Source of the DNA: an uncultured Bacilli bacterium | GTDB taxonomy: Bacteria; Bacillota_I; Bacilli_A; RF39; UBA660 | Assembly (NCBI GenBank): GCA_949025205.1 | Contig: CARMXJ010000003.1 | Span: 1 to 62,674, forward strand | Direction of reading: 5' to 3' | DNA length: 62,674 nucleotides | In this document: positions 16,375 through 62,674 of the stretch, piece by piece | Layout: each line of letters starts with the position of its first letter | Position numbering within the stretch: position 1 is the first letter of the stretch | Made by a program: the position numbers and the translations under genes | Notes under the pieces: model-generated | Database searches by the model: none | What the model was told of the DNA's origin: nothing | The model's input: only the letters and a program-made list of their open reading frames with translations

Positions 16375-16386
16375 ACAAAAGAACGT

Positions 16387-28170: not shown

Positions 28171-28830
28171 ATGGATAATAAATATAATTTAACTCGAGAA
28201 CAAAATGTTTTTCTTTCCAAAAGAAACATTGTAGATTATATATGGAAAAGTGCCAACTTAGAAGGGATTACAGTAACATATTCTGAAACACAAGTACTAT
28301 ATGATGGAGGGATTGTAAATAGTTTAACTGTAAATGAAGTAATAGCCATTAATAATTTAAAATATGCCTGGAACTTTATATTAGAAACAAAAGAATTACC
28401 TCTTAATTATAGAACTCTTTGCGAAATTCATAAATTAACCACCGAAAAATTAGTAATAAATCCAGGAAAAATAAGAACTACTCCCGTAAATATCGGAGGA
28501 ACCAATTGGCATCCCGCATTTCCTTACGAAAGCCAAATTAAAGAAGAATTAGAAGATTTATTAAATCAAAAAGAAAAAACAAAAACAGAAATAGCATTAG
28601 AAACTATGCTTTACATCATGAGAAGACAAATGTTTTTAGACGGAAATAAAAGAGTAGCCATGCTATTTGCTAACAAAATAATGATTGATAACGGCTGTGG
28701 TATTATTACAATTGCGAAAGAAAAACAACCAACATTCTTTGAAAAACTAATAGCCTTTTACGAAACAAATAATATGCAACATTTAAAAGAATGGCTATAC
28801 GAAAATTGTATTGATGGAATAAAATTGTAG
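28171..28830 (+). CDS. Fic/Doc-family protein with a Gln-for-His motif (second copy)
   Basis: RRQMFLDGNKRVAMLFAN compared with the Doc-type HxFxDxNKR motif. Confidence 0.65.
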   Translation: MDNKYNLTREQNVFLSKRNIVDYIWKSANLEGITVTYSETQVLYDGGIVNSLTVNEVIAINNLKYAWNFILETKELPLNYRTLCEIHKLTTEKLVINPGKIRTTPVNIGGTNWHPAFPYESQIKEELEDLLNQKEKTKTEIALETMLYIMRRQMFLDGNKRVAMLFANKIMIDNGCGIITIAKEKQPTFFEKLIAFYETNNMQHLKEWLYENCIDGIKL

Positions 28831-40783: not shown

Positions 40784-40842
40784 ACTTTAAAACAATTGGT
40801 TTATCTTTTTTTCTTTTATGGTATACTAAAATAGTGATAAAT

Positions 40843-41706: not shown

Positions 41707-41746
41707 GCTATGATATACTTTAAAAGAAAATAAAGAGGTGTTAAAA

Positions 41747-43525
41747 GTGTTTGGAAAAATAAAATATATCAGTGAAAATGTAGCATTCATAGAAAATCTA
41801 GGAGGAGATGCAGGAACTACAGATTTAATGAACATTAATGTTATTTTTGAAGCTCCTGACCAAAGAATTCTAGGAGAAGTAACGGAATTTAACAAAGAGG
41901 AAATAAAAATTCGTTTTTTAGGAGAATATGTTGGAGAACACTACATAAATGGTGTAATCAGAAAGCCATTATTATCTTCCCAAGTACGAATTATCAATAA
42001 TAATGAACTTTTAGAATTAGTAGGAACGCCTAGTAATAAATCTTTTGTTTTAGGAAATAGTGCTATATACAAAAATTACCAAGTTTGTCCCAACATCAAT
42101 GCTCTTTTATCCAACCACATTGGCATTTTTGGAAATACAGGAAGCGGTAAATCTTGCGGAGTGGCAAGAATCGTTCAAAACCTATTTTCCAATCCTCATA
42201 TGTTATCTTATAATGCTAATATCTTTGTTTTTGATGCTTATGGAGAATACAAAAATGCTTTTGGAAGTATTAATAAAATTAATCCCAACTACAGTTACAA
42301 ATTTATTACGACAAATCCAATCGATGCCGATGACTTTTTACTAAAAATACCAGTAAATTTACTGAACTTAGACGATTATGCTCTTCTATTACAAGCAACA
42401 AACCACTCTCAACTACCAATTATTGAAAGAACTATAAGACTTGCTAAAATATTTAGCCAAGATACTGAAGAATCTATAAAATACAAAAATCACTTAATTG
42501 CCAAAGCCTTGCTGGCCATTTTATTTAGTAACCAAACAACAGCTAGAAAGAAAAATGAAGTATTTCAAATCATTGAAGTATGCCACACCAACGAATTCAA
42601 TTTTGATAGTACTATTGCAGGCCTTGGATATACCAGAACATTTAGTGAATGCTTTGAAATTGATTCAAACGGTTATTTTGGAGAAAGTGTTTTAATTACA
42701 GATTACATTTTAAAACACATTGAGGATACGTATGAAGAAATGGAAGAACCAACAGAATACAACTATTCATTAGCAGATTTTACAAAAGCTTTAGAATTCA
42801 CAATGATTAGTGAAGGATTCCAAAACAATTCCAATCTATATAACGATGCAATTATCCTAAAAGTACGTTTAAACACCATTTTAAATACCAAAGTAGGAAA
42901 ATATTTTTCAAACGATGGCTATATACCTCTTGATCGATATGTTAGTAGTTTAGTTGTCAAAAATAATAAAAAAGCCCAAATTATTAATATCAACCTAGAA
43001 GATGTCGATGATACCTATGCTAAAGTTATTGTAAAAATTATGTCTCGTTTGTTCTTTGAGTTTTCTAAAAACTTAGAAAAAAGAGCATCGATTCCATTCC
43101 ACATTTTCTTAGAAGAAGCACATAGATATATTCAACATGATAGTGATACTTACTTAATTGGTTATAACATTTTTGATCGTATTGCAAAAGAAGGAAGAAA
43201 ATATGGTGTACTTTTAGGAATTATTAGCCAACGACCAGTAGAACTATCAGATACTGTTATATCCCAAGTATCCAATTTCTTAATATTTAAAATGACACAC
43301 CCGAAGGATATCAAATACATTGAAGAAATGCTTCCAAATATTTCATCAGATGTTATTGAAAAACAAAAAACATTACAACCAGGAAGTTGTGTCGGATTTG
43401 GCTCTGCATTTAAAATCCCTATGATTATGCGCCTAGAATTACCAGATCCACTTCCATATTCCTCAAACTGCGATGTCTCAGCAAGATGGAACGTAAAAAC
43501 AGAAACACAAGAAAGCAATCAATAA
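41747..43525 (+). CDS. HerA/FtsK-superfamily (DUF87-type) P-loop ATPase
   Basis: N-terminal barrel-like domain; Walker A GIFGNTGSGKSCG; Walker B FHIFLEEAHRYI; GRKYGVLLGIISQRPVELSDTVISQVSNFLIFKMTHPKD, typical of HerA. GTG 41747 lies 8 nt after AAAGAGG; the ORF-track start is 41738. Confidence 0.75.
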   Translation: MFGKIKYISENVAFIENLGGDAGTTDLMNINVIFEAPDQRILGEVTEFNKEEIKIRFLGEYVGEHYINGVIRKPLLSSQVRIINNNELLELVGTPSNKSFVLGNSAIYKNYQVCPNINALLSNHIGIFGNTGSGKSCGVARIVQNLFSNPHMLSYNANIFVFDAYGEYKNAFGSINKINPNYSYKFITTNPIDADDFLLKIPVNLLNLDDYALLLQATNHSQLPIIERTIRLAKIFSQDTEESIKYKNHLIAKALLAILFSNQTTARKKNEVFQIIEVCHTNEFNFDSTIAGLGYTRTFSECFEIDSNGYFGESVLITDYILKHIEDTYEEMEEPTEYNYSLADFTKALEFTMISEGFQNNSNLYNDAIILKVRLNTILNTKVGKYFSNDGYIPLDRYVSSLVVKNNKKAQIININLEDVDDTYAKVIVKIMSRLFFEFSKNLEKRASIPFHIFLEEAHRYIQHDSDTYLIGYNIFDRIAKEGRKYGVLLGIISQRPVELSDTVISQVSNFLIFKMTHPKDIKYIEEMLPNISSDVIEKQKTLQPGSCVGFGSAFKIPMIMRLELPDPLPYSSNCDVSARWNVKTETQESNQ

Positions 43526-43592
43526 AGATTGTTTTTTCTTGCAATAAAACGAGAAATCTATTAAAATAGCTGAAGAAAAAGAGGAATACAAA

Positions 43593-44387
43593 ATGATGAA
43601 TTATTATGAAAGAATAGCAGAATTAATTTTTAGAAATGTTAAAAGTTCTCTTAATAAAGACTTTGTTGAAGAACTAATACAAATAATCATAGAAGAAGAA
43701 GCTTTAGAAGAGTATATGACTACTCAAACGAAAGAATTATTATTAGATCCTGGTTGTATTATTTATCAAACAATGTATAAAGAAGATGCGCCATACGTCG
43801 AAGCGGTGCCAAAATCAAATTATTCCCAAGAATATTATGATTACCTTTATGCAACGCGTTTAACATTAACAGAATTAGAAAAAAGAAGATTAAGAAAAGA
43901 GTTAGAAGAAGGGACAACAGAGAATTTACAAAACTACATTTTAAATGAATATCTTACTCAATGTAAAAAATTAGATGCAATGAAAATATATCAAAAAAAT
44001 ATACGTATGGGTCAACCTGGTAATCCTGAAGAACGATATGCAGATATTTTTACATATGATATTTTACTGAAAGTTTCAGAGTTATTACAAGAAGAAGAAA
44101 TTTATAATATACATAGGTTAGAATTATGCGATGTATTAATTAGAACCTATAGAGCACTACTAGATGGACTTTATATGGGAGGAACTGGAGCAAAGACTTC
44201 TCCAACATTATGTTACCTTAAACAATTAGGTTGCGAAGAAAGAGTGTTAAAAGAAATACAACAAAAAAGTCAAGATTTAGAAGATATTGAAAAATTAAAA
44301 TTGGGATTAGAAATAAGTAAATCTACAGGTGATAAAATTTGTTCAGAACAAGGCAGATTAAAAAGGGCACTTCATATCAATAAATAA
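43593..44387 (+). CDS. Hypothetical helical protein downstream of the HerA-like ATPase
   Basis: 264-aa ORF with RBS AAGAGGAA; no motif recognised. Confidence 0.45.
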   Translation: MMNYYERIAELIFRNVKSSLNKDFVEELIQIIIEEEALEEYMTTQTKELLLDPGCIIYQTMYKEDAPYVEAVPKSNYSQEYYDYLYATRLTLTELEKRRLRKELEEGTTENLQNYILNEYLTQCKKLDAMKIYQKNIRMGQPGNPEERYADIFTYDILLKVSELLQEEEIYNIHRLELCDVLIRTYRALLDGLYMGGTGAKTSPTLCYLKQLGCEERVLKEIQQKSQDLEDIEKLKLGLEISKSTGDKICSEQGRLKRALHINK

Positions 44388-48372: not shown

Positions 48373-48483
48373 ACAAACACGCTCCTTAAAATTGAAAACT
48401 ATTTTAGCAAAAATTTGAAAATAGTCAAATTTGACACAGTCAAAAAAAATCCTTATACTTTAATTAGAAAGGATAGTGAATGT

Positions 48484-49377
48484 ATGACAAATCAAGAATA
48501 CTATGAAAAATACCTAGATTATTTAAGGTTTGAGCGAAAACTATCCAAAAATACCATAGCATCCTACCAAGACAATCTAAATCGTTTTGAAGAATTTATA
48601 AAACCAAAAAATATTAAAGAACTAAAAAGAAAAGATATAGAAGCTTACCTGAAATTTAATGACAATATGGCAGAAAAAAGTAGGGCACATTATTTAACAG
48701 TTGTCAAAAACTTCTATAATTTTTTAGTTGGAGAAAACTTAATCAATTCTAATCCTTGTGAGACAATAAAATCACCAAAAATTTCAAAAAAACTGCCAAA
48801 CTTTCTAACAGAAGAAGAAATTAATAAACTTTTAAATTTACATTTAGAAACGCCGCTAGACTACCGAAATAAAGCCATGCTAGAACTATTATATGCAACT
48901 GGTATTCGTGTAAGTGAACTTATTAGTTTAAAATTAAGCAATATTAGCTTAGAAGAAGATTTAATAAGAGTAGTAGGAAAGGGGAGTAAAGAACGATTAA
49001 GCCCCATTAGTTCTATAGCAGAAAAATATGTAAGAATATACATAGAAGAATACCGAAATACACTTTTAAAGAACAAAGATAGTGAATACGTTTTTATAAA
49101 TACCTTTGGTGATCCTATCTCTCGTCAAGGATTTTTTAAAAATTTAAAAAGAATCGCAAAAGAGCAGGGAATAGAAAAAGAAATAAGTCCCCATACACTC
49201 AGACACTCTTATGCAACCCACTTACTTTCTAATGGGGCAGACTTACGTATTATCCAAGAATTACTCGGACATAGCGATATTTCAACAACAGAAATCTATA
49301 CCCATTTAGTAAATGAAAAATTAAAAAACGATTATAATAATCACCCTAGAGCAAAAAAAGAAGGAAATCCAAATTAA
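48484..49377 (+). CDS. xerD: Tyrosine recombinase XerD/XerC family
   Basis: N-terminal SAM-like domain (YLDYLRFERKLSKNTIASY), R..ELLYATGIRVSEL, HTLRHSYATHLL, GHSDISTTEIYTH. ATG 48484 follows AAAGGA. Confidence 0.85.
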   Translation: MTNQEYYEKYLDYLRFERKLSKNTIASYQDNLNRFEEFIKPKNIKELKRKDIEAYLKFNDNMAEKSRAHYLTVVKNFYNFLVGENLINSNPCETIKSPKISKKLPNFLTEEEINKLLNLHLETPLDYRNKAMLELLYATGIRVSELISLKLSNISLEEDLIRVVGKGSKERLSPISSIAEKYVRIYIEEYRNTLLKNKDSEYVFINTFGDPISRQGFFKNLKRIAKEQGIEKEISPHTLRHSYATHLLSNGADLRIIQELLGHSDISTTEIYTHLVNEKLKNDYNNHPRAKKEGNPN

Positions 49378-50096
49378 TTTCCTTTTTTAAGTTTCCTGAA
49401 TCTACTTAAAATCATACCGTTTTGCTTTGATACTTCTGGTTCTTGTTGTTCGATTACTTTCTCTTGTAACAATTGATTTAAAATAACTTTCTGTAACTCT
49501 AATTCCTCTTTATAAGATACTGTTTGAATAGCAGTAGAAACATTTTGCATATTATCTTTTGTTTTTTCCTCTAACAATTTTTGGCATTGTAATTTATTCT
49601 TTGCTAAAACTTGTTCTAGACCAGAGATTTCTAAATTTAAATTTTGAATACTTTTTTCCAATTCTTGTTTTTCTCTTTTCTTTTTTCTATATTGAAAAGG
49701 CCAAAAAGCTCCAGAAGAAGCAACAATATCAAAACATCCGCAAAAAATAGTGGCCGCAAAAAATATAAGCCATGCATACGCAAATCCGACTTTTATAATA
49801 TAAACTAGGGTCGCTATAAGAGGGATACCTGGCATAAAAAATAGAAGGAAAATCCAAGAAAATATGTCTTCTTTTTTGGCATTTGGCATCTCTTGAATTA
49901 TCTCATTTAAATCTTGCATTTTAGATTTTTGTTTTTCTTTCTTTTTATCTAAACTTTCTTGTTGTTTTTCATTAACATTTTCAAGTTTTAAAATATCTCC
50001 CATATTGTCTTGATATTCTCTTGTTTGCATAATTCCTTGTTCATCGGAAACTAAAAAACTTTCCTCTTCGCGATTGAATTTAAAATTAACGTTCAA
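49374..50096 (-). CDS. Membrane protein with flanking coiled-coil regions
   Basis: TTG start preceded by GAGGTGA; two or three central TM helices; K/E/Q-rich N- and C-terminal regions. Confidence 0.5.
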   Translation of the reverse strand: MNVNFKFNREEESFLVSDEQGIMQTREYQDNMGDILKLENVNEKQQESLDKKKEKQKSKMQDLNEIIQEMPNAKKEDIFSWIFLLFFMPGIPLIATLVYIIKVGFAYAWLIFFAATIFCGCFDIVASSGAFWPFQYRKKKREKQELEKSIQNLNLEISGLEQVLAKNKLQCQKLLEEKTKDNMQNVSTAIQTVSYKEELELQKVILNQLLQEKVIEQQEPEVSKQNGMILSRFRKLKKGN

Positions 50097-50150
50097 AAAT
50101 AATCACCTCAACGGGACATATTATATAATGCAAATAAATTATAGTCAAAC

Positions 50151-50183
50151 AAAAAGCCTAGTTTTTTCACTAGACTTTTTTTG
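50151..50183 (-). terminator. Terminator downstream of the small basic ORF
   Basis: On the minus-strand RNA: AGUCUAGU gaaaaaa ACUAGGCU (one G.U pair) followed by UUUUU. Confidence 0.55.
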
Positions 50184-50235
50184 CTGCATCAATAAAACAT
50201 ACAGCCCATAAAAGATTAACTTTATAATCGTTTAA

Positions 50236-50370
50236 TTAACGACTTTGTTCGTTTCTACTAGATTTTCTATTATTATTTCTAGAATTTTCTTGTTTTTGGT
50301 TATTTTGTTTATTGTTTCTAGAATTAGTATTAGAATTTCTACTATTACGAGAATTATTATTTTTTTCCAT
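50236..50370 (-). CDS. Small (44 aa) highly basic Asn/Ser/Arg-rich protein, absent from the ORF track
   Basis: My translation: MEKNNNSRNSRNSNTNSRNNKQNNQKQENSRNNNRKSSRNEQSR*. Strong RBS GGGAGGT ~10 nt upstream, with its own terminator. Confidence 0.55.
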   Translation of the reverse strand: MEKNNNSRNSRNSNTNSRNNKQNNQKQENSRNNNRKSSRNEQSR

Positions 50371-50536
50371 AATCTCTTTTACCTCCCACTAGTAGTATGG
50401 TCTTTTTAGAACACTTAATTCAAAAATAAAAAATTATCTCTTGGAAATAATTGGTTTTAGTAAAAAAAGATTGACAACCACAGCCTAAATATGCTAATTT
50501 ATAATGGTTGTGTCCTAAAAAAGAAAGGAGTCTATT

Positions 50537-51736
50537 ATGAACAAATGGAATTTAATAACAAACTATTGCATATGGAAAATGAAAAATATAGCTGCTAAAC
50601 AAATACCTTTAGCAAGTAGTGGAGCATGTTATCAAATTGATGGTTACAGTTTTATTATTGACAGCAAATACGAACTACAATTTAACAAATTAATCTCTTT
50701 ATACCAAAATTGTACAAAACATTCTCTAAAAATAAAACTCCTAACTCTTTTAGCCAGTTTAAGTATTATTTCTCTTTTTACAACTACAAATGAAAATATA
50801 ACATTTACAAATAAACTAAAAGAAATAGTAGAAGATACAATAGACTCACATACTACTACAAATTCTTTTGCAAACATAGATATGCAATTAACTGAAAATA
50901 TAGTAAAAACAGCAGATAATCTAGCAAGAACAATAGAAACAAGAAATGCAGAAATAAAAAGCAATCAAAGAAAATATGACAGTCTTATTGAATTGAATTG
51001 TTACGATTTAAACATAGATATACAAACTAAAAACAAAATCATTACTTTAACAAATCAAATAGTAGAGATGGATAGAGACAATTTTGAAACGTTTTATCAA
51101 GAAAAATTATTAACTAAATTAGATAGTGCTGAGTCTCTGCAAACAATCCTTGATTATTTACAATCCAAAATAGGTACAAAAGGGAAAAAAGAAATAAAAG
51201 AATTAAAAGATATAGTTACCAAAATGGCAAATAGAAAAAATAGAGTATATTACGACATTCCCGTATATGACTTAGATTTTCAAGATTTTATTTATGAGAC
51301 AGCAACTTTTTATGATGTTCCATACAGAATTCCTTTTGTCATTGCTGAATTAGAATCAGGTGGTTCATGGAAATCAAACGGTGTACTAAGTAATGGAAAT
51401 TACGGACTTACGCAAATTAATTGGTATAATCTTGATTACATTGAAAAAAATTATGGATATAAAGAAATAGAAGTTCAAAACGATCCTTATATTAATATGG
51501 AATGCTGTATTCGCTTATTACATGATAAATTTCTTCCGGCAAGCCACTATGATAGCAATAACATCAATTACGAAGAAGTATTTGGTATATACAATCGTTG
51601 GGTGCTATGGCAAGATTATCCAGAAGCAATAGAATATGCAGAAAATGCCATAAACCTTTTAAATACCAAATACAGTGGCGATTTTGTAGTACAAGATAAG
51701 GAAGATACTTTAACATTAGAATTAACACAAAAATGA
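50537..51736 (+). CDS. Membrane-anchored lytic transglycosylase (SLT-domain) protein
   Basis: TM LLTLLASLSIISLF; C-terminal SLT motifs VIAELESGG and YGLTQIN. Confidence 0.65.
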   Translation: MNKWNLITNYCIWKMKNIAAKQIPLASSGACYQIDGYSFIIDSKYELQFNKLISLYQNCTKHSLKIKLLTLLASLSIISLFTTTNENITFTNKLKEIVEDTIDSHTTTNSFANIDMQLTENIVKTADNLARTIETRNAEIKSNQRKYDSLIELNCYDLNIDIQTKNKIITLTNQIVEMDRDNFETFYQEKLLTKLDSAESLQTILDYLQSKIGTKGKKEIKELKDIVTKMANRKNRVYYDIPVYDLDFQDFIYETATFYDVPYRIPFVIAELESGGSWKSNGVLSNGNYGLTQINWYNLDYIEKNYGYKEIEVQNDPYINMECCIRLLHDKFLPASHYDSNNINYEEVFGIYNRWVLWQDYPEAIEYAENAINLLNTKYSGDFVVQDKEDTLTLELTQK

Positions 51737-51893
51737 TAAAATAATGATAAAATAATGAAATTTGTCATTTTTATTTTATAAAAAATACTTTTCACAAAAT
51801 AAAAATAGCCAAGAATAAATGGGACTTTCAACTTGAATTAATCCCTAAAAAATGCAATATTTTAAAATACGACAGAAAATGGAAGATCTGACA

Positions 51894-53153
51894 ATGAATT
51901 CAAATAAAATAAAAAAGAAAATTTACAATTTAACACTTAAAGCAATAACGAAATATAAGAAAAACAATTGGCCAATATTTTTAAAATATCTTTTATTTAA
52001 GGTTTGTATTATTACGAATACTTTTTGCTTAGGGTTCACTTTTACAACAATGACTATGCCTTTTTGGCTAGATTTTATTAAAATGAACAATGAAAATAAT
52101 GACCTAGACAGTTACTATGAATCAATTCTTATTAACAGAAGCGATGATATAACGCAGTCAATAAAAAACAATGCGAGTGAAATAGCAAAAAATTATATTT
52201 TTGATACAAATACATTAGAATTAGAAAACGATTCAAAAAAAACAAATAATATTTCTGCTGTAGAATATAAAGAAAAATTGTTCCAAACAGACTTAGATTT
52301 AATTTTAGAAATAGCATGTATGTTAGAAAAATACAACATGACCTATATAGAACTAGTAGAACTTGTTCTAAATAACCCAGAATATAATCAAGAGTTACAA
52401 AATGTACTAGTCTCCAATCCGAATCTTACTACAGATAAATTAATAGCAATATTGCAAGGAAAAGATAATAGCTTACGAGAAACTTTATTTATTGGAGATT
52501 CAAGAACAAAAGGGATGCTTTTAAGCGGTGTAATAAGAGAGGATAATTCTGTTTATGGAGTTGGATACGGTTATAATTGGTTAATCGGTAAAGGCGAATT
52601 TTCCCCCAATAATACTAATGCATTAAATGGCGCAATTGATGATCTAAAAAATAAAATGGTAGAAGGGCAATTTTATAATATTGTTATTTGGCTAGGAGTT
52701 AATGATTATACTTATGTTGATGCTAATACTTATTTTGAAAAATATAAAGAATTAGCATTAAATGATTGGAATAACCATAATATTTATATTGTTTCAGTAG
52801 GGCCTGTAAAAGAAAATAGTAAAACGAATGTAAGCAACATAGGAATAGATAATTTTAACAATTCTTTAAAAGAGTTGACTGCAAATACTACTTTAGATAA
52901 TTTGAACTTTATAGACTTAAATTTAAATGAAAATTCTATTAAAAATTATGATACAGTAGGACTTCACTATGGTCCCAGCGATTATCAAAATATTTTCAAT
53001 ACATTAATAAAAACTATAACTAAAATGGATACTAAAGATATCCATAGCCTTTTGAATGTCTTTTATAATGCTTTAAATTCTTATGATAAAGTTTTTGATA
53101 ATAATGATGCTAATGAAATAATTTTAAGAAGGTTAAGAATACATAGAAAGTAA
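51894..53153 (+). CDS. Membrane-anchored SGNH/GDSL-type hydrolase
   Basis: TM region after a basic N-terminus; block I LFIGDSRTKG, block III IWLGVNDY. The start is uncertain (51852, 51879 or 51894). Confidence 0.6.
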   Translation: MNSNKIKKKIYNLTLKAITKYKKNNWPIFLKYLLFKVCIITNTFCLGFTFTTMTMPFWLDFIKMNNENNDLDSYYESILINRSDDITQSIKNNASEIAKNYIFDTNTLELENDSKKTNNISAVEYKEKLFQTDLDLILEIACMLEKYNMTYIELVELVLNNPEYNQELQNVLVSNPNLTTDKLIAILQGKDNSLRETLFIGDSRTKGMLLSGVIREDNSVYGVGYGYNWLIGKGEFSPNNTNALNGAIDDLKNKMVEGQFYNIVIWLGVNDYTYVDANTYFEKYKELALNDWNNHNIYIVSVGPVKENSKTNVSNIGIDNFNNSLKELTANTTLDNLNFIDLNLNENSIKNYDTVGLHYGPSDYQNIFNTLIKTITKMDTKDIHSLLNVFYNALNSYDKVFDNNDANEIILRRLRIHRK

Positions 53154-53176: not shown

Positions 53177-53938
53177 GTGAAGAGTATGCATATTTTAATT
53201 CCTTTACTTATATCTACCATTGCAGGATTATCTACGACTCTTGGAGCATTTGTAATCTTTTTAAAAATTAAAGAAGAGAATATCAATAAATTTATTGCGT
53301 TTTGTCTAAGTTTTTCCATTGCCATTATGATCGGTATCAGTTTAACAGATTTAATTCCAGAATCTTTTTTCACTTTGTTAGACGAAAATAAAACAAAAGG
53401 ATTTATAACGGCTATTTTATCTTTTATAATAGGTATTTTTTTAATCAAATTGCTTATTATTTTTATAAACAAACAAAAGAAAAACACAACTAGTTTATAC
53501 AAATTAGGTATTTTAAACATGCTTGCTTTAATGCTACATAATTTTCCAGAAGGAATTGCCACATTCTTAAGTGCTTACCAAGATATGGATTTAGGAATAA
53601 AATTAGGAATTGCTATTATGCTTCATAACATACCTGAAGGTATATCTATTGCTGTTCCCCTTTATTATGCGACAAAAAATAAAAAACAAGCCATAAAAAA
53701 AGCCTTTATATCTGGACTAGCAGAACCACTCGGCGCAATTCTTGCTTTTTTAATCTTTAAAAATTTTGTAACGAAAAACTTTTTAAGTATTATTTTACTT
53801 TTAGTAGCAGGGATTATGATCACAATATCCATAGAAGAAATGTACCCAGAAGTAATAAAATGCAAAGAAAAAAAACTATTTATCATAGGAATAGCTTTAG
53901 GAATCATTTTAATTCTTATCAATCATTTTTGTTTTTAA
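53177..53938 (+). CDS. zupT: ZIP-family zinc transporter ZupT
   Basis: LHNFPEGIATF and HNIPEGISIAVPLYYAT motifs; 8 TM segments. Alternative start at ATG 53186. Confidence 0.85.
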   Translation: MKSMHILIPLLISTIAGLSTTLGAFVIFLKIKEENINKFIAFCLSFSIAIMIGISLTDLIPESFFTLLDENKTKGFITAILSFIIGIFLIKLLIIFINKQKKNTTSLYKLGILNMLALMLHNFPEGIATFLSAYQDMDLGIKLGIAIMLHNIPEGISIAVPLYYATKNKKQAIKKAFISGLAEPLGAILAFLIFKNFVTKNFLSIILLLVAGIMITISIEEMYPEVIKCKEKKLFIIGIALGIILILINHFCF

Positions 53939-54732
53939 AATTTAATTTGTATAGCATCAATTTCTCGTCCATAAATACCAGCATAGCCATCACTTGTATT
54001 ATCTACTTTAGAAACCCAAGAAAGCCAGTTTCCATTCTTTAAATGCACACGGTATATAGCTCCATAAATTTGGACACCGTCTATAGGGTTTTCTAAATTA
54101 CCAGCATAATCACTTCTGCCCACAACAAAAGGAAGCCATATGTTTTTTATTTTATCATGAACTCGGTATGTCAAATGATCAATGTATAATCCACTAATAG
54201 AATTTCCAAAATTTCCAGCATAAGAAAGAATTCCAAATCCTGCACCTACTATAATATTGCTTAACCATTTTTTCTTAACGAAATCGTAGGCTTGATAGGT
54301 AAGTTCTTTTTTATTTTCAAAAAAATTTTTTGTTAAATAAATAGTTGGATTAATTCTCTTATTATCTTTTATGACTTCAAAATGCAAATGTCTTCCATAC
54401 GCATTTCCGCTTTCTCCCATAACTCCTAAAGGAATATTTGCACAAATCCTTTCTCCTTTTTTTACTAAAATTGAGTATTTTTGTAAATGAGCATATCGTG
54501 TTTTAAAACCATTTTCGTGGTTTATTAAAATATAATTCCCATAACTTTCTATTCCACTGGAACCACGATTTCTATCTTTACCATCTACAAGTTCTTCTAT
54601 AATACCTGCACTATGAGCTTTCACAATATTTTCCTCTTCGTTTGGTTTACTTCCTAAATCAATAGCTAAATGTGTATTCTTAAATCCTTGTGTGATTCTC
54701 TTAGAACTATTGACTAATACTTTATCATTCAT
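53935..54732 (-). CDS. M23-family peptidoglycan endopeptidase with three C-terminal ChW-like cell-wall-binding repeats (endolysin-like)
   Basis: HLAIDL (HxxxD) and GRHLHFEV (HxH). Three ~40-aa repeats of the type Y(R/Q)VH...W(L)...YAG..G..IDxxQI. No signal peptide. Confidence 0.75.
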   Translation of the reverse strand: MNDKVLVNSSKRITQGFKNTHLAIDLGSKPNEEENIVKAHSAGIIEELVDGKDRNRGSSGIESYGNYILINHENGFKTRYAHLQKYSILVKKGERICANIPLGVMGESGNAYGRHLHFEVIKDNKRINPTIYLTKNFFENKKELTYQAYDFVKKKWLSNIIVGAGFGILSYAGNFGNSISGLYIDHLTYRVHDKIKNIWLPFVVGRSDYAGNLENPIDGVQIYGAIYRVHLKNGNWLSWVSKVDNTSDGYAGIYGREIDAIQIKF

Positions 54733-55004
54733 TATTTTTCCTCCTTTTTCATCATTGTTTTTAAAATAATGTTTATATTATGTAAAACATCATATATTCC
54801 TCCGGCAGTAATACCAGAAACTGCAATTGCCACTTTAAAATCACGTGTTAAAAACCATTCTGCAAGAGCCATAAATATTCCTATCAATAAATTTTGTATA
54901 GGAATTAAATAATCATTAAACCACGATAACTTTTTTGAAATTTTTCCAAGAAACCATGTGACTAATAATGAAACGGTGCAAAATAATTCAGTTGGTGTTT
55001 CCAT
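54732..55004 (-). CDS. Phage-type holin
   Basis: 90 aa with 2-3 TM helices and a charged C-terminus KTMMKKEEK. The stop overlaps the endolysin start (TAATG). Architecture resembles A118/Hol118-type holins. Confidence 0.6.
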   Translation of the reverse strand: METPTELFCTVSLLVTWFLGKISKKLSWFNDYLIPIQNLLIGIFMALAEWFLTRDFKVAIAVSGITAGGIYDVLHNINIILKTMMKKEEK

Positions 55005-55054
55005 TTACATTCTCCTCTCTAAAAGAAGAATAAAATGTCTTTTAAAATTTGTAT

Positions 55055-55097
55055 AGCAACCAAAAGTTTCGAAAAACTAAGGAAACTTTTGGTTGCT
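55055..55097. promoter_or_regulatory. Perfect 16-bp inverted repeat in the divergent holin / fibre-RHS intergenic region (bidirectional terminator or operator)
   Basis: AGCAACCAAAAGTTTC (55055-70), 11-nt loop, GAAACTTTTGGTTGCT (55082-97). Confidence 0.6.
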
Positions 55098-55191
55098 TGT
55101 TTATTTTAAAATCCTTTTTTATTCTGGAAACAGGAAGGAGGAAACATAAAAACAAAATCAAAAATTCATTTACAAAAAAGGAGGAGAAAAA

Positions 55192-57363
55192 ATGAATTTA
55201 GACGAATTATATTTTAAAGACAGTTTTACAAAAGAAGAAAACAAAATCAACCTAGAAGTAAACAAATTAACGCTAGAATGCTTAGAATCCAAAAATAAAA
55301 CTTTTAAGTTAGATGAATTAGGAAATTTAAGAGTAAAATCTATATCAACCATTGCACCAACTCCCGATATAGTAACACAGACAGGTGCAATTTATTTAAG
55401 TAGTAATAAAACAAATCCGGGTGAATACTTAGGAGGAATATGGAAACAAAAACGTACAAGTGCTTTGTTTGATAAAAAAGATTTAGATCAAGAGCAAAAG
55501 GAAATAATTGGAGCAAACCATATGACGTTTAACGCAAGCGAAAATAATGCAATAGTGTACAACATAGAAGGTAAGTGTGAACAAAAAAATGACCCTAGTC
55601 CAAATAACCCAAGTGAAATAAGAACAATAAAAGGGATAAGGAATTTATTTAATAAAGAAGAGGTTGAAAACGGTTATTTAAATGTTGCAAATGGTGAAAT
55701 TATTTTGAATAACGATTGGATAACAACAAATTTTATACCTTTAGAAAATAACACAGAAAATGTTACTATTATTGGAAACTCTGGTAACAAAGAAGGCTAC
55801 TGCTTTTATGATAATGAAAAAGCATATTTAATTGGCGGTAGTATGGCCTCTAATGTAAACAAAATAATATCTGTGCCTAACAATGCCAAATATTTTAAAG
55901 CTACAGTCAGCAAAGATGTAGTAAATCAATATGCGATCTATTTAAATCATTCTATAAATACTCACTATGTTCCATATGGTTCATGGTTAAAAAGTAAGGT
56001 AACGGGTAAGAATTTATTTGATTTAAAAACATACTTTGAATACAGCATAGCAATTGGTTGCACAAAAACTTTAATAAATAATGGTATTCAGTTAGACTTT
56101 ACTAACGGAGCAGATGCCTATCTTAATTTTGCAACTAACTCTACTGGTACAAACGAACTAAAAACAAGCGAAAAATTAAGGAAATCTTGTATTGAAGTAA
56201 GAGCAAATCAAGAATATACCATATCACTTAGTTCATCTCCAAAATGTTACATTAGTTTTTTAGATAAAAATTATGAGCCAACTGCAGAATATGTTAGGAT
56301 TCCTCAAACATATTCAAAAACATCTTATACATTAACAACTAACGAAAATACAAAATATATAATGTTAAGATTAGGAATACAAGATTCTAATTATACTACT
56401 TATTCTTTTAATGACATTCAACTAGAAGAAGGAACAGAAGCAACTGAATACGAACCATACAAAGAAAAAGAAATATTGATGGATATGAGTAAAGATAATC
56501 TGTTAAATACACCTTATACTTTTGAGAATAAATTAACTAACACAGCAACAAGAGACGATTTTTTTGCTGCCACCGATTATTATGCTGAACTAAAAGCGGG
56601 AAAAATTTATACCTTTAAATGTAAAACAGATGGTGTATTTGGAAAAGACGGAAGTGATACTTTAGAATGTTATTTATTGAAAGATAAAAAGTATGAATAT
56701 ATTATAAGATTAGGAACAAATCCTTTTTCCTTTACTGTAGCATCAGATGGAAAGTTTTATTTAAGATATGATATAAATCAAAATGGAAGAACACATTCTT
56801 TTTGGGACTTTGAGATTTATGAAGGATATAGTCCATACTATGAACTATATTCTACTAAAGATTTATCAATAAGAGATAGAATAGAAGTAGTAAGTGGGGT
56901 TTTAGAAAAACGAATAGGTAAGATTGTTTTAGATGGAACACAACCAATATCAGGTTTTGATACATCTTCCGAAAATACTATACGTATATCATTCAATAAT
57001 GTATTGTTGCAAAAAGCAAATATTGAAGAAGGAATAAAAAGTGTTTTATGTAATAGACTGTCATGTGTTTCAATGTGGGCTAAAGATACAGAAGGAATAT
57101 ACCTAACAGCAACGCACATAATTATTCGAATAAATAAAAGTACAATAGGAACAACAACCAATGAAATAAATACGTATTTAAGCAATCATCCTTTGGAAAT
57201 ATATTACGTTTTAGAAGAACCAGAAGAAATACAATTAACTCCAACAGATGTGCCATTATTTGAAGATGAAAATCATGTTACTTTACTTGAAGATGTAGAA
57301 ACAAGCACAGAAATAAAATATAAACCTTATTTAACAGTATATGTCTGGGAAAGGGTAGCTTAA
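55192..57363 (+). CDS. Phage tail-fibre / receptor-binding-like protein
   Basis: N-terminal LDELGNLRVKSI and TGAIYLSSNKTNPGEYLGGIWKQ (common in Gram-positive phage fibre/baseplate proteins); IQLEEGTEATEYEPY module boundary. RBS AAGGAGGAG. No signal peptide. Confidence 0.6.
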   Translation: MNLDELYFKDSFTKEENKINLEVNKLTLECLESKNKTFKLDELGNLRVKSISTIAPTPDIVTQTGAIYLSSNKTNPGEYLGGIWKQKRTSALFDKKDLDQEQKEIIGANHMTFNASENNAIVYNIEGKCEQKNDPSPNNPSEIRTIKGIRNLFNKEEVENGYLNVANGEIILNNDWITTNFIPLENNTENVTIIGNSGNKEGYCFYDNEKAYLIGGSMASNVNKIISVPNNAKYFKATVSKDVVNQYAIYLNHSINTHYVPYGSWLKSKVTGKNLFDLKTYFEYSIAIGCTKTLINNGIQLDFTNGADAYLNFATNSTGTNELKTSEKLRKSCIEVRANQEYTISLSSSPKCYISFLDKNYEPTAEYVRIPQTYSKTSYTLTTNENTKYIMLRLGIQDSNYTTYSFNDIQLEEGTEATEYEPYKEKEILMDMSKDNLLNTPYTFENKLTNTATRDDFFAATDYYAELKAGKIYTFKCKTDGVFGKDGSDTLECYLLKDKKYEYIIRLGTNPFSFTVASDGKFYLRYDINQNGRTHSFWDFEIYEGYSPYYELYSTKDLSIRDRIEVVSGVLEKRIGKIVLDGTQPISGFDTSSENTIRISFNNVLLQKANIEEGIKSVLCNRLSCVSMWAKDTEGIYLTATHIIIRINKSTIGTTTNEINTYLSNHPLEIYYVLEEPEEIQLTPTDVPLFEDENHVTLLEDVETSTEIKYKPYLTVYVWERVA

Positions 57364-60300
57364 ATGAAAGAAATAATAGATTTAAGAACTCCTAAAGAAA
57401 AACACTTTTTAAATGATGATGGTACATATACACTGTATGCATATGATATTCATTTTTTAAAAAATGGGAAATATATTGAAAAAAATAACACAATTATTGA
57501 AAAAGACAATTGTCTAACAAATCAAGACAATGATTTTTCTGTAACTTTTGCTACAAACTCTATTGATTGTTTATTAAAAGTAAATAAAGAAAATCAAGAG
57601 ATTAAAATTGATCTACCAAATAAAATCATAGAAAAAGAAATAACAAACAATCAGATTACTTATAAAAATATTCTACCAAATATTGATATTAAGTATGATA
57701 TTACAAATAACAAAGTAAAAGATACGATTTTATTAAAAGAAAAAAATAATGCTTTCATAAACTTAAAATATATAATAAAAACGAATTTAGTTTTAAAACT
57801 TGAAGAAGATGGATCTATTCAAGTTTTAAATAATGAAAATAGATGTTGTTTTTCAATTGCAAAACCCACTTTAACAGATAATCAAAATACATCTTATCCT
57901 ATTAGCTATCTACTTGAAAAAACAGAGAATGATTATTTATTAAGCTTTTCCATTCAAAAAGAATTACTTGAAAGAAAAGATTTATATCCACTTACCATAG
58001 ACCCTAGTATTGAAGTAAAAGAAGAGAATAGCGTAATAGATACTTATATCTATCCTGGAGATGAGGGAGTAAATCGAAATAATCAAGATAAATTAATAGT
58101 GGGGGTTGATCCAAATGGCACAATATATAGGGCTCTTATCAAATTTAACTTGCCTACCATTGGAACAGGATGCGATATAATAAATGCACAAGTTAATCTC
58201 ATGAGCCATCCTGAACTTGTAGATGGTGGAATGTTTCCTGAGGAAGAAACCTATTTAAAGAAACCGATTGATGTACATGCTATAAACACTTCTTGGAATG
58301 AAGAAACTGCAAATTGGAATACAATGCATGATAAAATTAACCAAAGAATAGAAGAATATTTTTTTGGTGAAAGAACAATATGGGTACATGATGGATATGA
58401 TTCACTAGGAAATATTAAAAAAGGTAGAGAACTAACATCTACTTCCTTTGATATCACTAATTTAGTTAAGCAGTGGTATGCGGGAAAAGAAAATAATGGA
58501 TTTATGCTTAAATTAGATAAAGAAACTTATGAAGACCAATATCGCGAATATTATTTTTATTCCAAAAACAATAACGCGGCGATAGAACATCAAATAGAAA
58601 ATCCAAAGCCATTCTTAGTTATCTCCTATCGCAATCAAACTGGATTAGAAAGTTATATGACGTATCAAAATATTTCTTTTAATCAAGGAACTTCTTACGT
58701 CAATAATTTAACCGGAAATATAACAAATGTATTTGATGTAAATCATACATTAGGAAACAAATATCCAATACAACTAAGTTTAATTTACAATACCAATGAT
58801 GTTGTTTTAAATAACCAATACAACTTAGCAAAAGGATACAAATGGAATTACTACCAAACAATAAAGGAAGTAGATTTTGATAATGTATGTTTAGAATATA
58901 TAGATGCCGATGGAACCATTCATTATTTTTATAAATACAAAGAAACAGAAGAATCCGAAGAAAAAATAATAGATGAAGATGGCTTAGGACTCACTGCAAC
59001 AAAAGAAGAAAATACATACACCATAACCGATAAAACAAACAATAAAATGATTTTTACCAAAAGAGGAAATACATATTACCTAACAAAAATTATAAATACA
59101 AAGGAAGATTTTATCACCATAGAATATGATGATAATAACCAAATAGATAAGCTTATCGATGGAAATCAAGAAGAAATGAATATCCTTTATGAAGAAAATA
59201 AAATAACCATAATAAGCAATTATCTTAGTACAACATTAAATAGAAGTGAAAATAAGATAATATCTTTAGCCAATAAACTTGGTACCACTTCATTTACATA
59301 TAATGATACCTATATTATTAATAAAATCACCGATACAAATGGAAAGAAAACCATCTTTTCTTATTATCCAATGAGCCCTTATCGTTTAAAAAGAGTAGCA
59401 GAATTAGGTCTAAACAATATAGAAGGAACATCTTTAGAATTTACTTATGAATATAATGTAACAAGAATAAAAGATAACAAAGGAAGAATCAATAGCTATA
59501 CTTTTAACGACCAAGGAAACACTACAGGAATTACCAATTTAGATACAGACGGAGATTTTAGAAATGGGTATGGTATTTTAAAAGAATACTATACTGATTT
59601 TGGAGGAACAGCTCCTCATTTAAAAAATAAATTAGCAATAGAAACAACACCTGCCAAATACACAAAAAATTATTTCATAGATTCTAGTTTTGAAAAAGGA
59701 ACTTACCCAAATACAACAACAGAAGAAGCAAGAACTGGTACACATAGTTTAAAAATAATAAACACCTATACTTTAAATTTACCACAAATACAAGAAGAGA
59801 AAAACTACACATTTAGTGGCTATATAAAAACAATAGAAACAGAAAACAAAATGGCTTTGTATTGTGGAGAAGAAAAAATCAAAGAAATAAAAATTGCTTC
59901 CTCTAATGATTTTAAACGATATAGTATAACCAGCGAATTAGAAACCACTAAAAATTACAGTATTAAAATAACATCAAATGGTATTCTATACATGGATGAT
60001 GTACAACTTGAAGAAGGGGAAATAGCAAATTATCACAATTTGATAGAAAATTCCGATTTTAAAGATAATTTCAACTATTGGAGTTATTATGGTGTTGATG
60101 CCAATGGCAACGATTTAGAAAACCAAGCAAGTATTGTTACTCTAGAAAATCAAATCCCTGCTTTAAAAATGCATTGTGACCCACAAACTTCTCATAGTAT
60201 TGACCAAACATTGCATATTAGCGGAAAAGCAAATGATATTTATCGTTTATCCTTTTGGTATAAAAATGAAGGAATCTATGCAGAAAACATGGCAAATGGC

Positions 60301-62674
60301 AATATGGCTCTTGTAAGTTTTGCTTATCCCTATACAGAAGAAGGACATGGCGAATACCCATGTATCTTAAATTTGCATGCAACAGAATGGCAATTCTTCC
60401 AAACCGTATTTATAGCAGAAGAAGATTACACAAATGTATACTTAAGTTTTCTAGCACAAAATAACGCCAATGATTTATATATTACAAACATCACTCTAAC
60501 CAAAGACCTAGAAAATACTTCCTACCAATACGATGAAAAAGGAAACCTAATTGCAACAAATAACAAAAACAAAGGTGTATCAGAATTTAAATACGACAAA
60601 AATAACCAACTAACAAGCATGTTTGAACCAAAAGGCAATAGTTTTAATTTCGAATATGATAATAAAGATACTTCTAAAGTATTACAAGGAATTTCTAAAA
60701 AAGGGATTTCTAACAAAATTAAATATGATGAAAATAATAATCCTATAAAAACCATTATTCAAAACAATGAGACAACAGAATTAAATGACCATTATTTCTT
60801 TATAAGATCAAAAGGAACAAACAAATATATATTTGCAAATTTTGATACCATGGAGCTTGAACTAAAAGAGGTGGCATGTTCAAAAGATACCTGGGGATTT
60901 TCCAAAGGAAGAGATAGTGACAATTATGTTATTAAAAGTGGAATTATCCCCTTTTATTTGATAGTTAATGGAAGTATGAAAGTAAAAATAGCAAAGATAG
61001 GAGCACTGTTTTCTATAGAAAAAGAAGAAAATGGCAGTTACACTTTTGGAATCATGAGAACTGATGGCATTCGTCAATGTATAACCATCACAACAGAAGG
61101 ATTCAAAATAGAAAAATACGACAAAGACAATGAAAACCAACAATTCTATTTAGAACCATTTGAAAGTAAAGAATATATAGAAACAACGGCTAGTTATACG
61201 AGCAATGGCAAATTTATAAAAACAACTACTGATGCCTTAGGAAAAGTAACAGAATATGATATTGATGCTACTACTGGATTAACCAAAAGTATTACAGACC
61301 CAAAAGGAGAAACAACCTATTATACTTATAACGCTAAAGAACAAATCACCAAAGTAGAAAAAGAGAATAAAGCCACAAGTTACACCTATAATGAACAAGA
61401 TTTACTAGAAAAAATTACTTGTAACAATAAAGAATACAACTTCACATATGATGAATTCTTAAACGCAAAAGAAGTTAGTATTAACAACCAAGTATTAGTC
61501 ACCAACGAATACGAAGAAAACAATGGAAATCTAATCTCTGCAAACTATGGAAATAATACCAATATCTCTTATACTTATGATGAACTTGATAGAATAAAAA
61601 CACTCACCAAAAACAATAAAGTCTATCAATATAAGTACGATAACCAAAACAATCTAGCTAAAATCACCCAAAATAACGATACCTATAACTTTTACTACGA
61701 CTTTGCAGAACGTTTAAGTAGATACGAGTACAACAACTTTTCTATTGATTATGACTATGACTTAAATAACAACATCACCAAGAAAAAATACAATCTAGAA
61801 AATCAAACACAAGAAATATCTTACACTTATGATGAAGATGATTCCATTATTAAAGTAACTTTAGATAACACCAATCAAAATCTAATCTACGATAAACTAG
61901 GTAGACTAACAAACAAAAATATTGATAACCAACTACCAGTAGAATATGAATACTACAAAAACGGAAACAAAACCTCTCTTGTTTTAAAAAGTATGAAAAT
62001 AGATAATGACTTATACGAATATATCTATGATGCTATCTATAACATAACAGATATCTATAAAAACAAAGAACTCCAAAACCACTACGAATACGATAACTTT
62101 AGTGAACTTATAAAAGAAGACAACTATCAAAATAACAAAACCATAAAATATACTTATGATGCATCTGGAAATATATTAAAAAGAGAAGAATACACTATAA
62201 ACACAGAAGTATTCATTCACCAAGACACTTATGAATACAACAATAACAATTGGAAAGACCAACTAACCAAATATAACGATACCACTCTAACATATGATGC
62301 TATTGGAAATCCACTAACCATTGGGAATGCCAATCTATCCTGGTACGCAAGAGAACTCCAAACCTACCAAAATAACATGTTTAATATAAGCTATTTTTAT
62401 AACAAAGAAGGAATTCGTACCAAAAAAAGAGTCAATAATATAGACACAAACTACTTTCTAGAGAATTCAAATATTATCTTTGAAGAAACAAATGGGAATA
62501 TGTTATACTATATGAGAACTGGTAAAAATGAACTTCTAGGATTCATTTACAACAGTGAAAAGTACTACTACAAGAAAAACTATCAAGGAGATATTATCGG
62601 TATCTATAACCAAGAATATGAACTTATTGCAACCTATGAATACGACTCTTGGGGAAGAATACTTAGTATCAAAG
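57364..62674 (+). CDS. RHS/YD-repeat polymorphic toxin, N-terminal ~1,770 codons (partial; continues beyond the window)
   Basis: ATG 57364 directly abuts the TAA of the upstream gene. It is missing from the ORF track only because no stop is reached. I translated codons 1 to ~530, a block at 60001 and the last codons, all in the same frame. DTYIYPG..NRNNQDKLIVGVD..IYRALIKFNLP is a DNRLRE-like domain. Dozens of YD repeats follow (YTYDELDRIKTL, YKYDNQNNLAKI, YEYDSWGRI), with onset of the RHS core (LTYDAIGNPLTIGN). Confidence 0.9.
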   Translation, partial: MKEIIDLRTPKEKHFLNDDGTYTLYAYDIHFLKNGKYIEKNNTIIEKDNCLTNQDNDFSVTFATNSIDCLLKVNKENQEIKIDLPNKIIEKEITNNQITYKNILPNIDIKYDITNNKVKDTILLKEKNNAFINLKYIIKTNLVLKLEEDGSIQVLNNENRCCFSIAKPTLTDNQNTSYPISYLLEKTENDYLLSFSIQKELLERKDLYPLTIDPSIEVKEENSVIDTYIYPGDEGVNRNNQDKLIVGVDPNGTIYRALIKFNLPTIGTGCDIINAQVNLMSHPELVDGGMFPEEETYLKKPIDVHAINTSWNEETANWNTMHDKINQRIEEYFFGERTIWVHDGYDSLGNIKKGRELTSTSFDITNLVKQWYAGKENNGFMLKLDKETYEDQYREYYFYSKNNNAAIEHQIENPKPFLVISYRNQTGLESYMTYQNISFNQGTSYVNNLTGNITNVFDVNHTLGNKYPIQLSLIYNTNDVVLNNQYNLAKGYKWNYYQTIKEVDFDNVCLEYIDADGTIHYFYKYKETEESEEKIIDEDGLGLTATKEENTYTITDKTNNKMIFTKRGNTYYLTKIINTKEDFITIEYDDNNQIDKLIDGNQEEMNILYEENKITIISNYLSTTLNRSENKIISLANKLGTTSFTYNDTYIINKITDTNGKKTIFSYYPMSPYRLKRVAELGLNNIEGTSLEFTYEYNVTRIKDNKGRINSYTFNDQGNTTGITNLDTDGDFRNGYGILKEYYTDFGGTAPHLKNKLAIETTPAKYTKNYFIDSSFEKGTYPNTTTEEARTGTHSLKIINTYTLNLPQIQEEKNYTFSGYIKTIETENKMALYCGEEKIKEIKIASSNDFKRYSITSELETTKNYSIKITSNGILYMDDVQLEEGEIANYHNLIENSDFKDNFNYWSYYGVDANGNDLENQASIVTLENQIPALKMHCDPQTSHSIDQTLHISGKANDIYRLSFWYKNEGIYAENMANGNMALVSFAYPYTEEGHGEYPCILNLHATEWQFFQTVFIAEEDYTNVYLSFLAQNNANDLYITNITLTKDLENTSYQYDEKGNLIATNNKNKGVSEFKYDKNNQLTSMFEPKGNSFNFEYDNKDTSKVLQGISKKGISNKIKYDENNNPIKTIIQNNETTELNDHYFFIRSKGTNKYIFANFDTMELELKEVACSKDTWGFSKGRDSDNYVIKSGIIPFYLIVNGSMKVKIAKIGALFSIEKEENGSYTFGIMRTDGIRQCITITTEGFKIEKYDKDNENQQFYLEPFESKEYIETTASYTSNGKFIKTTTDALGKVTEYDIDATTGLTKSITDPKGETTYYTYNAKEQITKVEKENKATSYTYNEQDLLEKITCNNKEYNFTYDEFLNAKEVSINNQVLVTNEYEENNGNLISANYGNNTNISYTYDELDRIKTLTKNNKVYQYKYDNQNNLAKITQNNDTYNFYYDFAERLSRYEYNNFSIDYDYDLNNNITKKKYNLENQTQEISYTYDEDDSIIKVTLDNTNQNLIYDKLGRLTNKNIDNQLPVEYEYYKNGNKTSLVLKSMKIDNDLYEYIYDAIYNITDIYKNKELQNHYEYDNFSELIKEDNYQNNKTIKYTYDASGNILKREEYTINTEVFIHQDTYEYNNNNWKDQLTKYNDTTLTYDAIGNPLTIGNANLSWYARELQTYQNNMFNISYFYNKEGIRTKKRVNNIDTNYFLENSNIIFEETNGNMLYYMRTGKNELLGFIYNSEKYYYKKNYQGDIIGIYNQEYELIATYEYDSWGRILSIK

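Follow-up and report, generated by a model that had tools for sequence, protein, structure and literature searches.

We analysed a stretch of 62,674 nt (the window) from an uncultured Bacilli bacterium of the RF39 lineage (contig CARMXJ010000003.1 of assembly GCA_949025205.1), in the last part of which two divergent gene pairs face each other: a holin gene (54732–55004) and a gene for an M23 zinc endopeptidase (53935–54732) on the minus strand, and on the plus strand a gene for a protein derived from phage tail fibres (55192–57363), followed by an RHS/YD polymorphic toxin gene (57364–62674) that runs off the window. An earlier, sequence-only reading had described this arrangement, and its outline was confirmed: the coordinates of the overlapping TAATG cassette on the minus strand hold and the expected domains and motifs were found in its products, the fibre-like gene does encode 723 aa and adjoins the RHS gene with zero spacing, the RHS frame indeed exceeds 1,770 codons, and the 187-bp spacer between the pairs (55005–55191), with its perfect 16-bp inverted repeat, can be read directly.

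The holin, a protein of 90 aa, shows three hydrophobic segments in its hydropathy profile, ends in a charged C-terminal tail and matches PHROG holin family 1299. Its stop codon overlaps the M23 start codon, and a Shine-Dalgarno sequence is located within the 3′ end of the holin gene. The M23 enzyme (265 aa, endolysin-type; Pfam Peptidase_M23, 69 bits) lacks a signal peptide and has both catalytic motifs intact, HxxxD at residues 21–25 and HxH at residues 115–117. Its C-terminal half is repeated, is common to other endolysins and is probably wall-binding; the ChW label previously given to this half did not survive, with no Pfam match at E<0.05 and matches to PHROG endolysin families only, which cover the last 40 residues. 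A signal-less M23 enzyme overlapping a phage-type holin is the endolysin arrangement, and both lysis genes of type 10 secretion are represented here, by a phage-type holin and a signal-less hydrolase predicted to be co-transcribed with it. In the window a ZIP zinc transporter gene (53177–53938) adjoins the M23 gene, convergent with it and with a 4-nt overlap, and in a rearranged related locus (L022) the ZIP gene (16353–17105) adjoins the orthologous M23 gene in divergent orientation, a neighbourhood that may be coincidence or a functional link through zinc.

The RHS frame is open for 1770 codons up to the end of the window, representing residues 1–1770 of a protein of 2031 aa that is complete in an identical, longer assembly (L001). 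Matches were obtained with the Pfam RHS_repeat family (81–86 bits) and the NCBIfam profile TIGR01643, and in L001 with the Rhs-associated core TIGR03696 at residues 1760–1851 (52.9 bits, cut-off 32.5). The N-terminus is predicted to be beta-rich, and residues 226–420 (nt 58039–58623) form a DNRLRE/CBM96 module (NCBIfam, 77.9 bits), the predicted fold of which matches a chondroitin-sulfate-binding carbohydrate-binding module (CBM; PDB 8wab, E 2.5e-5); further beta-sandwich inserts and YD repeats are also present. The C-terminal domain, seen in L001, comprises approximately 200 aa, is Lys- and Gly-rich, and has no relatives in Pfam, among PDB sequences or in a search of 5.8 billion proteins. Between species the C-terminal domains differ past a conserved NNPIN..D..G motif, and in the 60–250 residues that follow the RHS core in the related loci L010–L089, many of these domains are short and join Lys-rich amphipathic runs (e.g. 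KKLLKKAKKAIKKVVKTVKK) with Gly/Ala-rich hydrophobic segments. Together with the transmembrane segments of most ORFs immediately downstream, this composition suggests membrane-targeting toxins with membrane-bound immunity proteins. Single-linkage clustering of the C-terminal families by BLAST was abandoned as uninformative, the sequences being of low complexity.

Four assemblies contain this locus according to an exact-protein look-up. The contig to which the window belongs has 63,563 nt and ends about 32 nt past the RHS stop codon, and in L001 an open reading frame (ORF) starting MLNKRKLI..., with its own ribosome-binding site, begins 14 nt past the RHS stop, immediately before the contig end. 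Extension of the contig, as proposed earlier, thus delivered the full 2031-aa RHS protein, its C-terminal domain and this ORF, and nothing further downstream; an exact-match scan of the Joint Genome Institute (JGI) metagenomes with the RHS 3′ junction also found nothing. In related loci, 35 of 49 immunity-like small ORFs 3′ of the RHS gene have transmembrane segments, and orphan RHS C-terminal fragments are present in 13 loci, where they repeat the last ~200 core residues, which probably explains why assemblies break at the RHS gene. Judged by these sequence features, the combination of toxin, immunity gene and orphan modules is that of a polymorphic-toxin locus.

The fibre-like protein has no signal peptide and was classified by profile and alignment matches; its TAA stop codon is directly followed by the ATG of the RHS gene (57361–57366). 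Its relatives are mostly 1100–1250 aa long and, where context exists, are encoded among phage tail genes, as with the Collar-domain proteins and CHAP lysin of locus L007, and the 723-aa protein aligns only to their central part (approximately residues 350–1000). Its ~100 N-terminal residues and last 13 residues match short proteins of 170–260 aa encoded beside RHS genes, which correspond to the last 200 aa of tail and tail-fibre proteins in PHROGs and contain the full Pfam Gp10_C domain (36–105 bits in nine relatives sampled). In the window protein Gp10_C covers only residues 64–87 (18 bits, cut-off 27), the terminal motif PY..Y.W.RVA is present, and about 600 aa of CBM-like beta-sandwich modules lie between the conserved ends. 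Since the ends match the short partners and the middle matches phage tail proteins, we describe it as a fibre-tip protein with approximately 600 aa of inserted CBM-like modules. Module-level fold matches of a low-confidence structural model were to viral distal tail and tail-fibre proteins and to CBM-like sandwiches in PDB, and were used only as support for the CBM-like modules and the phage tail relatives; among GenBank phages the sole match to the modules, at 25% identity, was a Streptococcus prophage tail fibre. The partners of the RHS proteins have no counterpart of the N-terminal virion-attachment region found in the 1100–1250-aa phage homologues.

None of the three soluble proteins encoded here has an N-terminal hydrophobic stretch, the maximum 12-residue Kyte-Doolittle mean being ≤0.5 in all of them and 0.39 over the first 45 residues of the RHS protein. 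The RHS N-terminus is conserved from residue 1 as MKEIELI.KRK.REKHFL and is never hydrophobic across ~65 species, so that the absence of such a signal from the fibre and RHS proteins, noted from the window alone, agrees with the hydropathy values and extends to the RHS orthologues. No LXG or WXG domain was matched in the RHS protein by Pfam or NCBIfam, and the precomputed Pfam annotation of the window contig contains neither an FtsK/SpoIIIE-type EssC nor other genes of a type VII secretion system (T7SS) or LXG family; by every sequence feature tested, the RHS protein is not a T7SS substrate. An alternative exporter was not seen in the 57 kb upstream either. That region is ordinary chromosome, with genes for competence-type T2SSF, RpoD, RuvAB, QueA, Tgt, RelA, MurC and HisS, followed by AspS, GatCAB, HerA, ThiF, GpsA, MgsA and XerD, and the precomputed annotation of the contig lists no capsid, portal, terminase or tape-measure genes; tube, sheath and baseplate genes are likewise missing from the window. 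The sequence-only reading was therefore right about the absence of these phage genes and of LXG and T7SS genes from the window, and its statement that there is no integrase stands in substance only, as a Phage_integrase-domain gene is located at 48415–49377. This gene was rejected as a phage integrase, being housekeeping XerD (TIGR02225, 341 bits, above cut-off) and syntenic in a sister species. We likewise rejected an anti-phage defence function, as none of the proteins encoded at the locus matched a PADLOC family, and a viral origin of the RHS gene, as no relative of its N-terminus was found among the 2.9 million viral contigs of IMG/VR.

The sister species has the same four-gene layout at the same chromosomal site. 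Identity to the window species is 87% for the holin, 71% for the M23 enzyme and 74% for the RHS protein, with ratios of nonsynonymous to synonymous substitution (dN/dS) of 0.076, 0.24 and 0.14, respectively, and housekeeping genes range from 68 to 97% identity with dN/dS of 0.05–0.20; the values of 0.076 and 0.24 argue that the holin and M23 genes are maintained by selection. The fibre-like partner is only 40% identical with a dN/dS of 0.41, and on this basis evolves fast, as receptor-binding proteins do.

Searching species-representative genomes with a profile of the RHS N-terminus gave 80 loci, all from uncultured Bacilli or from genomes with labels such as "Tenericutes" and Acholeplasma sp. 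CAG:878, which we take to be gut metagenome-assembled genomes of the RF39 group. Seven loci (L012, L023, L027, L044, L047, L055 and L082) come from metagenome-assembled genomes labelled "uncultured Muribaculaceae" and one (L022) from "Ruminococcus sp.", probably mis-binned or mislabelled genomes, and locus L009 was discarded because it resembles an assembly chimera or truncation. The RHS proteins are about 2000–2170 aa long, and a fibre-tip gene lies directly 5′ of the RHS gene on the same strand in 78/80 loci. The gap between the two is usually ≤82 nt, or they overlap, and widens to ~400–500 nt where a conserved ORF of ~118 aa intervenes. This ORF was found in 22 of the 80 loci (L019, L022–L024, L027–L029, L036 and others) and not in the window, and matches no family of Pfam, PHROGs or NCBIfam. 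A small sigma-70-family gene immediately precedes the fibre-tip gene in 24 of the 80 loci. In relatives with 5–10 kb of downstream sequence, the genes past RHS are immunity-like, lysis or housekeeping genes or orphan C-terminal fragments, with no phage structural genes (capsid, portal, terminase, tube, sheath, tape-measure or baseplate) among the most frequent families in the related flanks.

Lysis genes are concentrated around these RHS genes. In 31 loci a peptidoglycan hydrolase gene was present no more than 3 kb from RHS, usually flanked by small holin-like transmembrane ORFs; the density in this zone is 8.05 per 100 kb, and that in the larger outer flanks is 0.19 per 100 kb (31 vs 1 genes, ~42-fold enrichment, binomial p 4.6e-11). 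The RHS and fibre proteins, as putative cargo, have no Sec or Tat signal, and lysin genes are linked to the RHS genes at this 42-fold enrichment. The cassettes are non-orthologous and belong to several unrelated families: a Hol44-like holin with M23 (the window, the sister species, L022 and L030), a Hol44-like holin with an M15 peptidase, a TcdE-family holin (TIGR01593, 64.9 bits, cut-off 40.2) with an M23-like enzyme, an XhlA-like protein and r1t-like holin with M23, and GH25 or CW_7/LysM lysins. Their position also varies: of those encoded on the RHS strand, 15 lie downstream and 10 upstream of the RHS gene, and of the others 5 are upstream and divergent and 1 is convergent; in locus L049, for example, the order is sigma factor, fibre tip, small ORF, RHS, immunity gene, holin and M23-like enzyme. 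In the loci without a cassette, the commonest families among 150 neighbouring ORFs were helix-turn-helix (HTH) regulators, DUF2691 and housekeeping enzymes.

The spacer between the two operons of the window contains a hairpin (55055–55097, assigned to neither strand) with perfect 16-bp arms at 55055–55070 and 55082–55097 and an 11-nt loop, followed by TTGTTTATTTT. The hairpin was retained in all six species with the divergent holin/fibre layout, with compensatory changes in 4 of its 17 pairs and a conserved TTGTTT 3′ of the hairpin, and its position suggests a control element common to both divergent operons, a candidate attenuator, terminator or operator. Between the hairpin and the fibre gene, the intergenic regions of L011, L012, L014 and L021 have a strong Shine-Dalgarno sequence followed by a start-stop ORF (ATG-TAA or ATG-TAG), the ATG of which has been lost in the window (ACATAA; 55055–55200). 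Such a minimal start-stop ORF preceding the fibre gene possibly acts as a regulatory leader.

On balance, we lean towards the view that the locus is a chromosomal, phage-derived but tail-less RHS toxin module, the product of which is released through the holin and M23 enzyme in a manner resembling type 10 secretion. It would have three components: the giant signal-less RHS protein, its translationally coupled fibre-tip partner, and the divergent holin and M23 pair. The RHS protein and its partner would accumulate in the cytoplasm, where the RHS protein would fold, until the holin permeabilises the membrane and allows the signal-less M23 enzyme to reach and cut the peptidoglycan. The large cargo could then escape, probably by lysis of a sacrificed subpopulation, as in type 10 secretion of Tc (toxin complex) toxins. 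Once released, the RHS protein and its fast-evolving partner may bind the competitor surface through the carbohydrate-binding modules of each, and the membrane-active-looking C-terminal domain may kill cells without the downstream immunity protein. We infer that the cassette mediates release, that the RHS protein and its partner form a complex and that the partner does the targeting, and we likewise infer how the toxin kills.

A domesticated lysis cassette releasing the RHS toxin, as first proposed from the window, is substantially but not conclusively supported by the comparative data, agreeing with the strict pairing of fibre-tip and RHS genes, the selected and intact lysis genes, the enrichment of such genes near RHS and the absence of phage structural genes. 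Several observations weigh against this view. A cassette is adjacent, within ~4.6 kb, in only 20 of the 42 fully flanked loci (≥4 kb of sequence on both sides), and adjacency is hence not obligatory; moreover, since phage fibre genes adjoin lysis genes, phage gene order could account for some of the linkage without a functional reason, and part of it could be inherited rather than selected. At 27.5 bits (E 3.9e-6), the match of the holin to Pfam Phage_holin_5_2 is slightly below the gathering cut-off of 29.2, and the AlphaFold model of the fibre-like protein is of low confidence (predicted local distance difference test score, pLDDT, 56.5). The sigma-factor-like regulator of the 24 loci is not present in the window species. 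In the four assemblies with the fibre gene, the sequence stops within RHS or 32–40 nt beyond it (L001 18266–18308), leaving the downstream region unassembled, and the M23 enzyme could be a resident autolysin, given that its adjacency to a ZIP gene is seen again in L022.

Three other explanations are in our view less likely than lysis-assisted release. The fibre tip and the cassette may be leftovers of one degraded prophage, linked by history only, with the RHS protein and its partner leaving the cell by another route or acting while surface-bound and the cassette playing no part in toxin release. The order of fibre and holin-lysin genes does mirror phage late-gene order, all parts have PHROG relatives, and about half of the related loci lack an adjacent cassette. 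We nevertheless consider this unlikely: purifying selection on the lysis genes is comparable to that on housekeeping genes, no other phage genes remain and no alternative exporter lies in the 57 kb upstream, and the holin and hydrolase families are unrelated and occupy four positions around the fibre-tip and RHS pair, which would therefore require repeated independent acquisition beside the pair.

We give rather little credence to the second explanation, by which the holin and M23 genes are a resident autolysis or cell-wall remodelling system, serving for example programmed death or daughter-cell separation, that neighbours the toxin by chance and has other purposes or other cargo. M23 enzymes are often housekeeping hydrolases, and the ZIP gene stands beside the M23 gene in both the window and the rearranged L022; however, this M23 enzyme lacks a signal peptide and its gene overlaps that of a phage-type holin, and the 42-fold local enrichment of varied lysin/holin pairs across the clade would not be expected of such a system. 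Finally, it is highly improbable that the four genes border an intact prophage, or a cluster for a phage-tail-like particle such as a tailocin or contractile injection system, the other genes of which would lie past the contig end, with the RHS protein as a particle-attached fibre toxin, since, although all assemblies of the species stop 32–40 nt past the RHS stop and the partner is homologous to tail-fibre tips, the downstream regions of relatives hold immunity-like, orphan, lysis and housekeeping genes and no structural genes, the viral contigs contain no relative, the partners are devoid of the N-terminal virion-attachment part, and orphan RHS fragments probably account for the assembly breaks.

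Lysis-assisted release has a precedent in Yersinia, where RHS-containing Tc toxins are released by type 10 holin/endolysin/spanin cassettes located inside or away from the Tc operon (PMC10847048, PMC10847046, PMC9718411). Like the Tc (ABC) toxins of Yersinia entomophaga and Y. enterocolitica (YenLC), the present RHS protein would be a large signal-less RHS/YD cocoon toxin folded in the cytoplasm, accompanied by receptor-binding, glycan-recognising accessory parts, and by a phage-derived holin and peptidoglycan endopeptidase that would lie outside any prophage, virion genes being absent here from the 57 kb upstream and, in related loci, from both sides. In contrast to Yersinia, the host is apparently a Gram-positive-type member of the Bacillota and the cassette has no spanin; the partner is a Gp10_C fibre tip rather than TcA or chitinases, and the likely targets are bacteria rather than insects, given the immunity genes and orphan C-terminal modules. 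With no TcA translocator and no split into TcB and TcC, the RHS protein being a single chain of 2031 aa with CBM inserts, the locus does not encode a Tc toxin.

In the PaLoc (pathogenicity locus) of Clostridioides difficile, a holin and the remnant of an endolysin accompany a sigma factor (PMC12485765). Like this locus (TcdR, TcdE, TcdL) and related clostridial toxin or bacteriocin loci, the one described here is a Firmicutes locus with a large signal-less toxin, a phage holin and a lysin, and related loci come nearer still to it, with a small sigma-70-family gene upstream (24/80) and a TcdE-family holin downstream, as in L049. The cargo differs, being an RHS polymorphic toxin and not a large clostridial glucosylating toxin, the endolysin is intact, the holin of the window species is Hol44-like, and a sigma-factor gene is missing from its vicinity. 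The WapA proteins of Bacillus subtilis and Streptococcus suis share with the present protein the YD-repeat shell, the Rhs-associated core and the polymorphic C-terminal toxin with its immunity gene, and a DNRLRE domain is likewise part of S. suis WapA (PMC12704120). WapA-type RHS proteins carry Sec signals (PMC12704120), so the present protein is not of that type; neither a Sec signal peptide nor a wall anchor was found here, and WapA has both.

Bacteriocins offer a further comparison, as colicins with their lysis proteins, and pyocins via the R/F-pyocin holin-endolysin cassette, are released by lysis of some of the producers. By analogy, the locus would combine a cytoplasmic toxin, a receptor-binding part, an immunity protein and phage-derived lysis genes, and would differ from colicins and pyocins in its RHS cocoon scaffold, its separate candidate receptor-binding fibre tip and the lack of a tail particle. 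The combination had been thought undescribed, which holds for the Gram-positive setting, the single-chain RHS protein with carbohydrate-binding modules and the obligatory fibre-tip partner, and does not hold for lysis-cassette release of RHS toxins as such, already known for the Tc toxins of Yersinia (PMC10847048). Literature searches on RHS proteins with phage fibre tips, on RHS loci in RF39 and on polymorphic toxins with holins in Gram-positives brought up no relevant paper.

The route by which very large toxins without a signal exit bacterial cells is an open question, and no delivery machinery is known for the RHS and teneurin-like proteins of Gram-positive bacteria, as stated explicitly for bacterial teneurin-like YD proteins (PMC13018210). 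For no fewer than 78 species of abundant, uncultured gut bacteria, the locus offers an answer that is specific and can be tested, namely a lysis cassette together with a phage fibre-tip partner. We put forward more tentatively that this whole clade of uncultured gut Bacilli may possess an unrecognised form of RHS delivery, in which the RHS protein with its carbohydrate-binding modules forms a complex with a trimeric, fast-evolving fibre-tip targeting subunit and leaves the cell by altruistic lysis under the control of a sigma factor or leader hairpin. If true, this would be the first case in Gram-positive bacteria in which an RHS protein is released by lysis, and the first in which a phage receptor-binding protein targets an RHS toxin; the product would in effect be a soluble RHS bacteriocin, built from the distal part of a phage genome but with no tail. 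Type-10-like release would then extend from Gram-negative pathogens to gut commensals, as a new reuse of phage parts in bacterial warfare with a modular, engineerable targeting subunit.

Other parts of the window gave some additional observations. Between the XerD and ZIP genes (49374–53153) there are three poorly annotated genes. Two encode membrane proteins, of 240 aa and of 433 aa, the latter weakly matching GDSL/SGNH; the third product, of 399 aa, has PHROG matches and a weak match to SLT lytic transglycosylases and is conserved in the sister species (50% identity). A role in wall remodelling for toxin release is possible. A HerA-type ATPase (41738–43525; PADLOC HerA, E 5e-104), 97% identical in the sister species, is flanked by unannotated genes of 290 and 264 aa (40834–44387), a region that could represent a HerA-based defence system or a NurA/HerA-like repair pair. 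Also found in the housekeeping part were a gene for a Y1 transposase of the IS200/IS605 type and two genes with Fic domains (18047–18547; 15571–16374; 28171–28830). Lastly, a 193-aa protein with only the Sigma70_r1_2 domain (5085–5666) precedes a protein of 1405 aa with sigma-70 regions 2, 3 and 4 (5694–9917), and from this domain distribution the pair looks like a split and much enlarged primary sigma factor.

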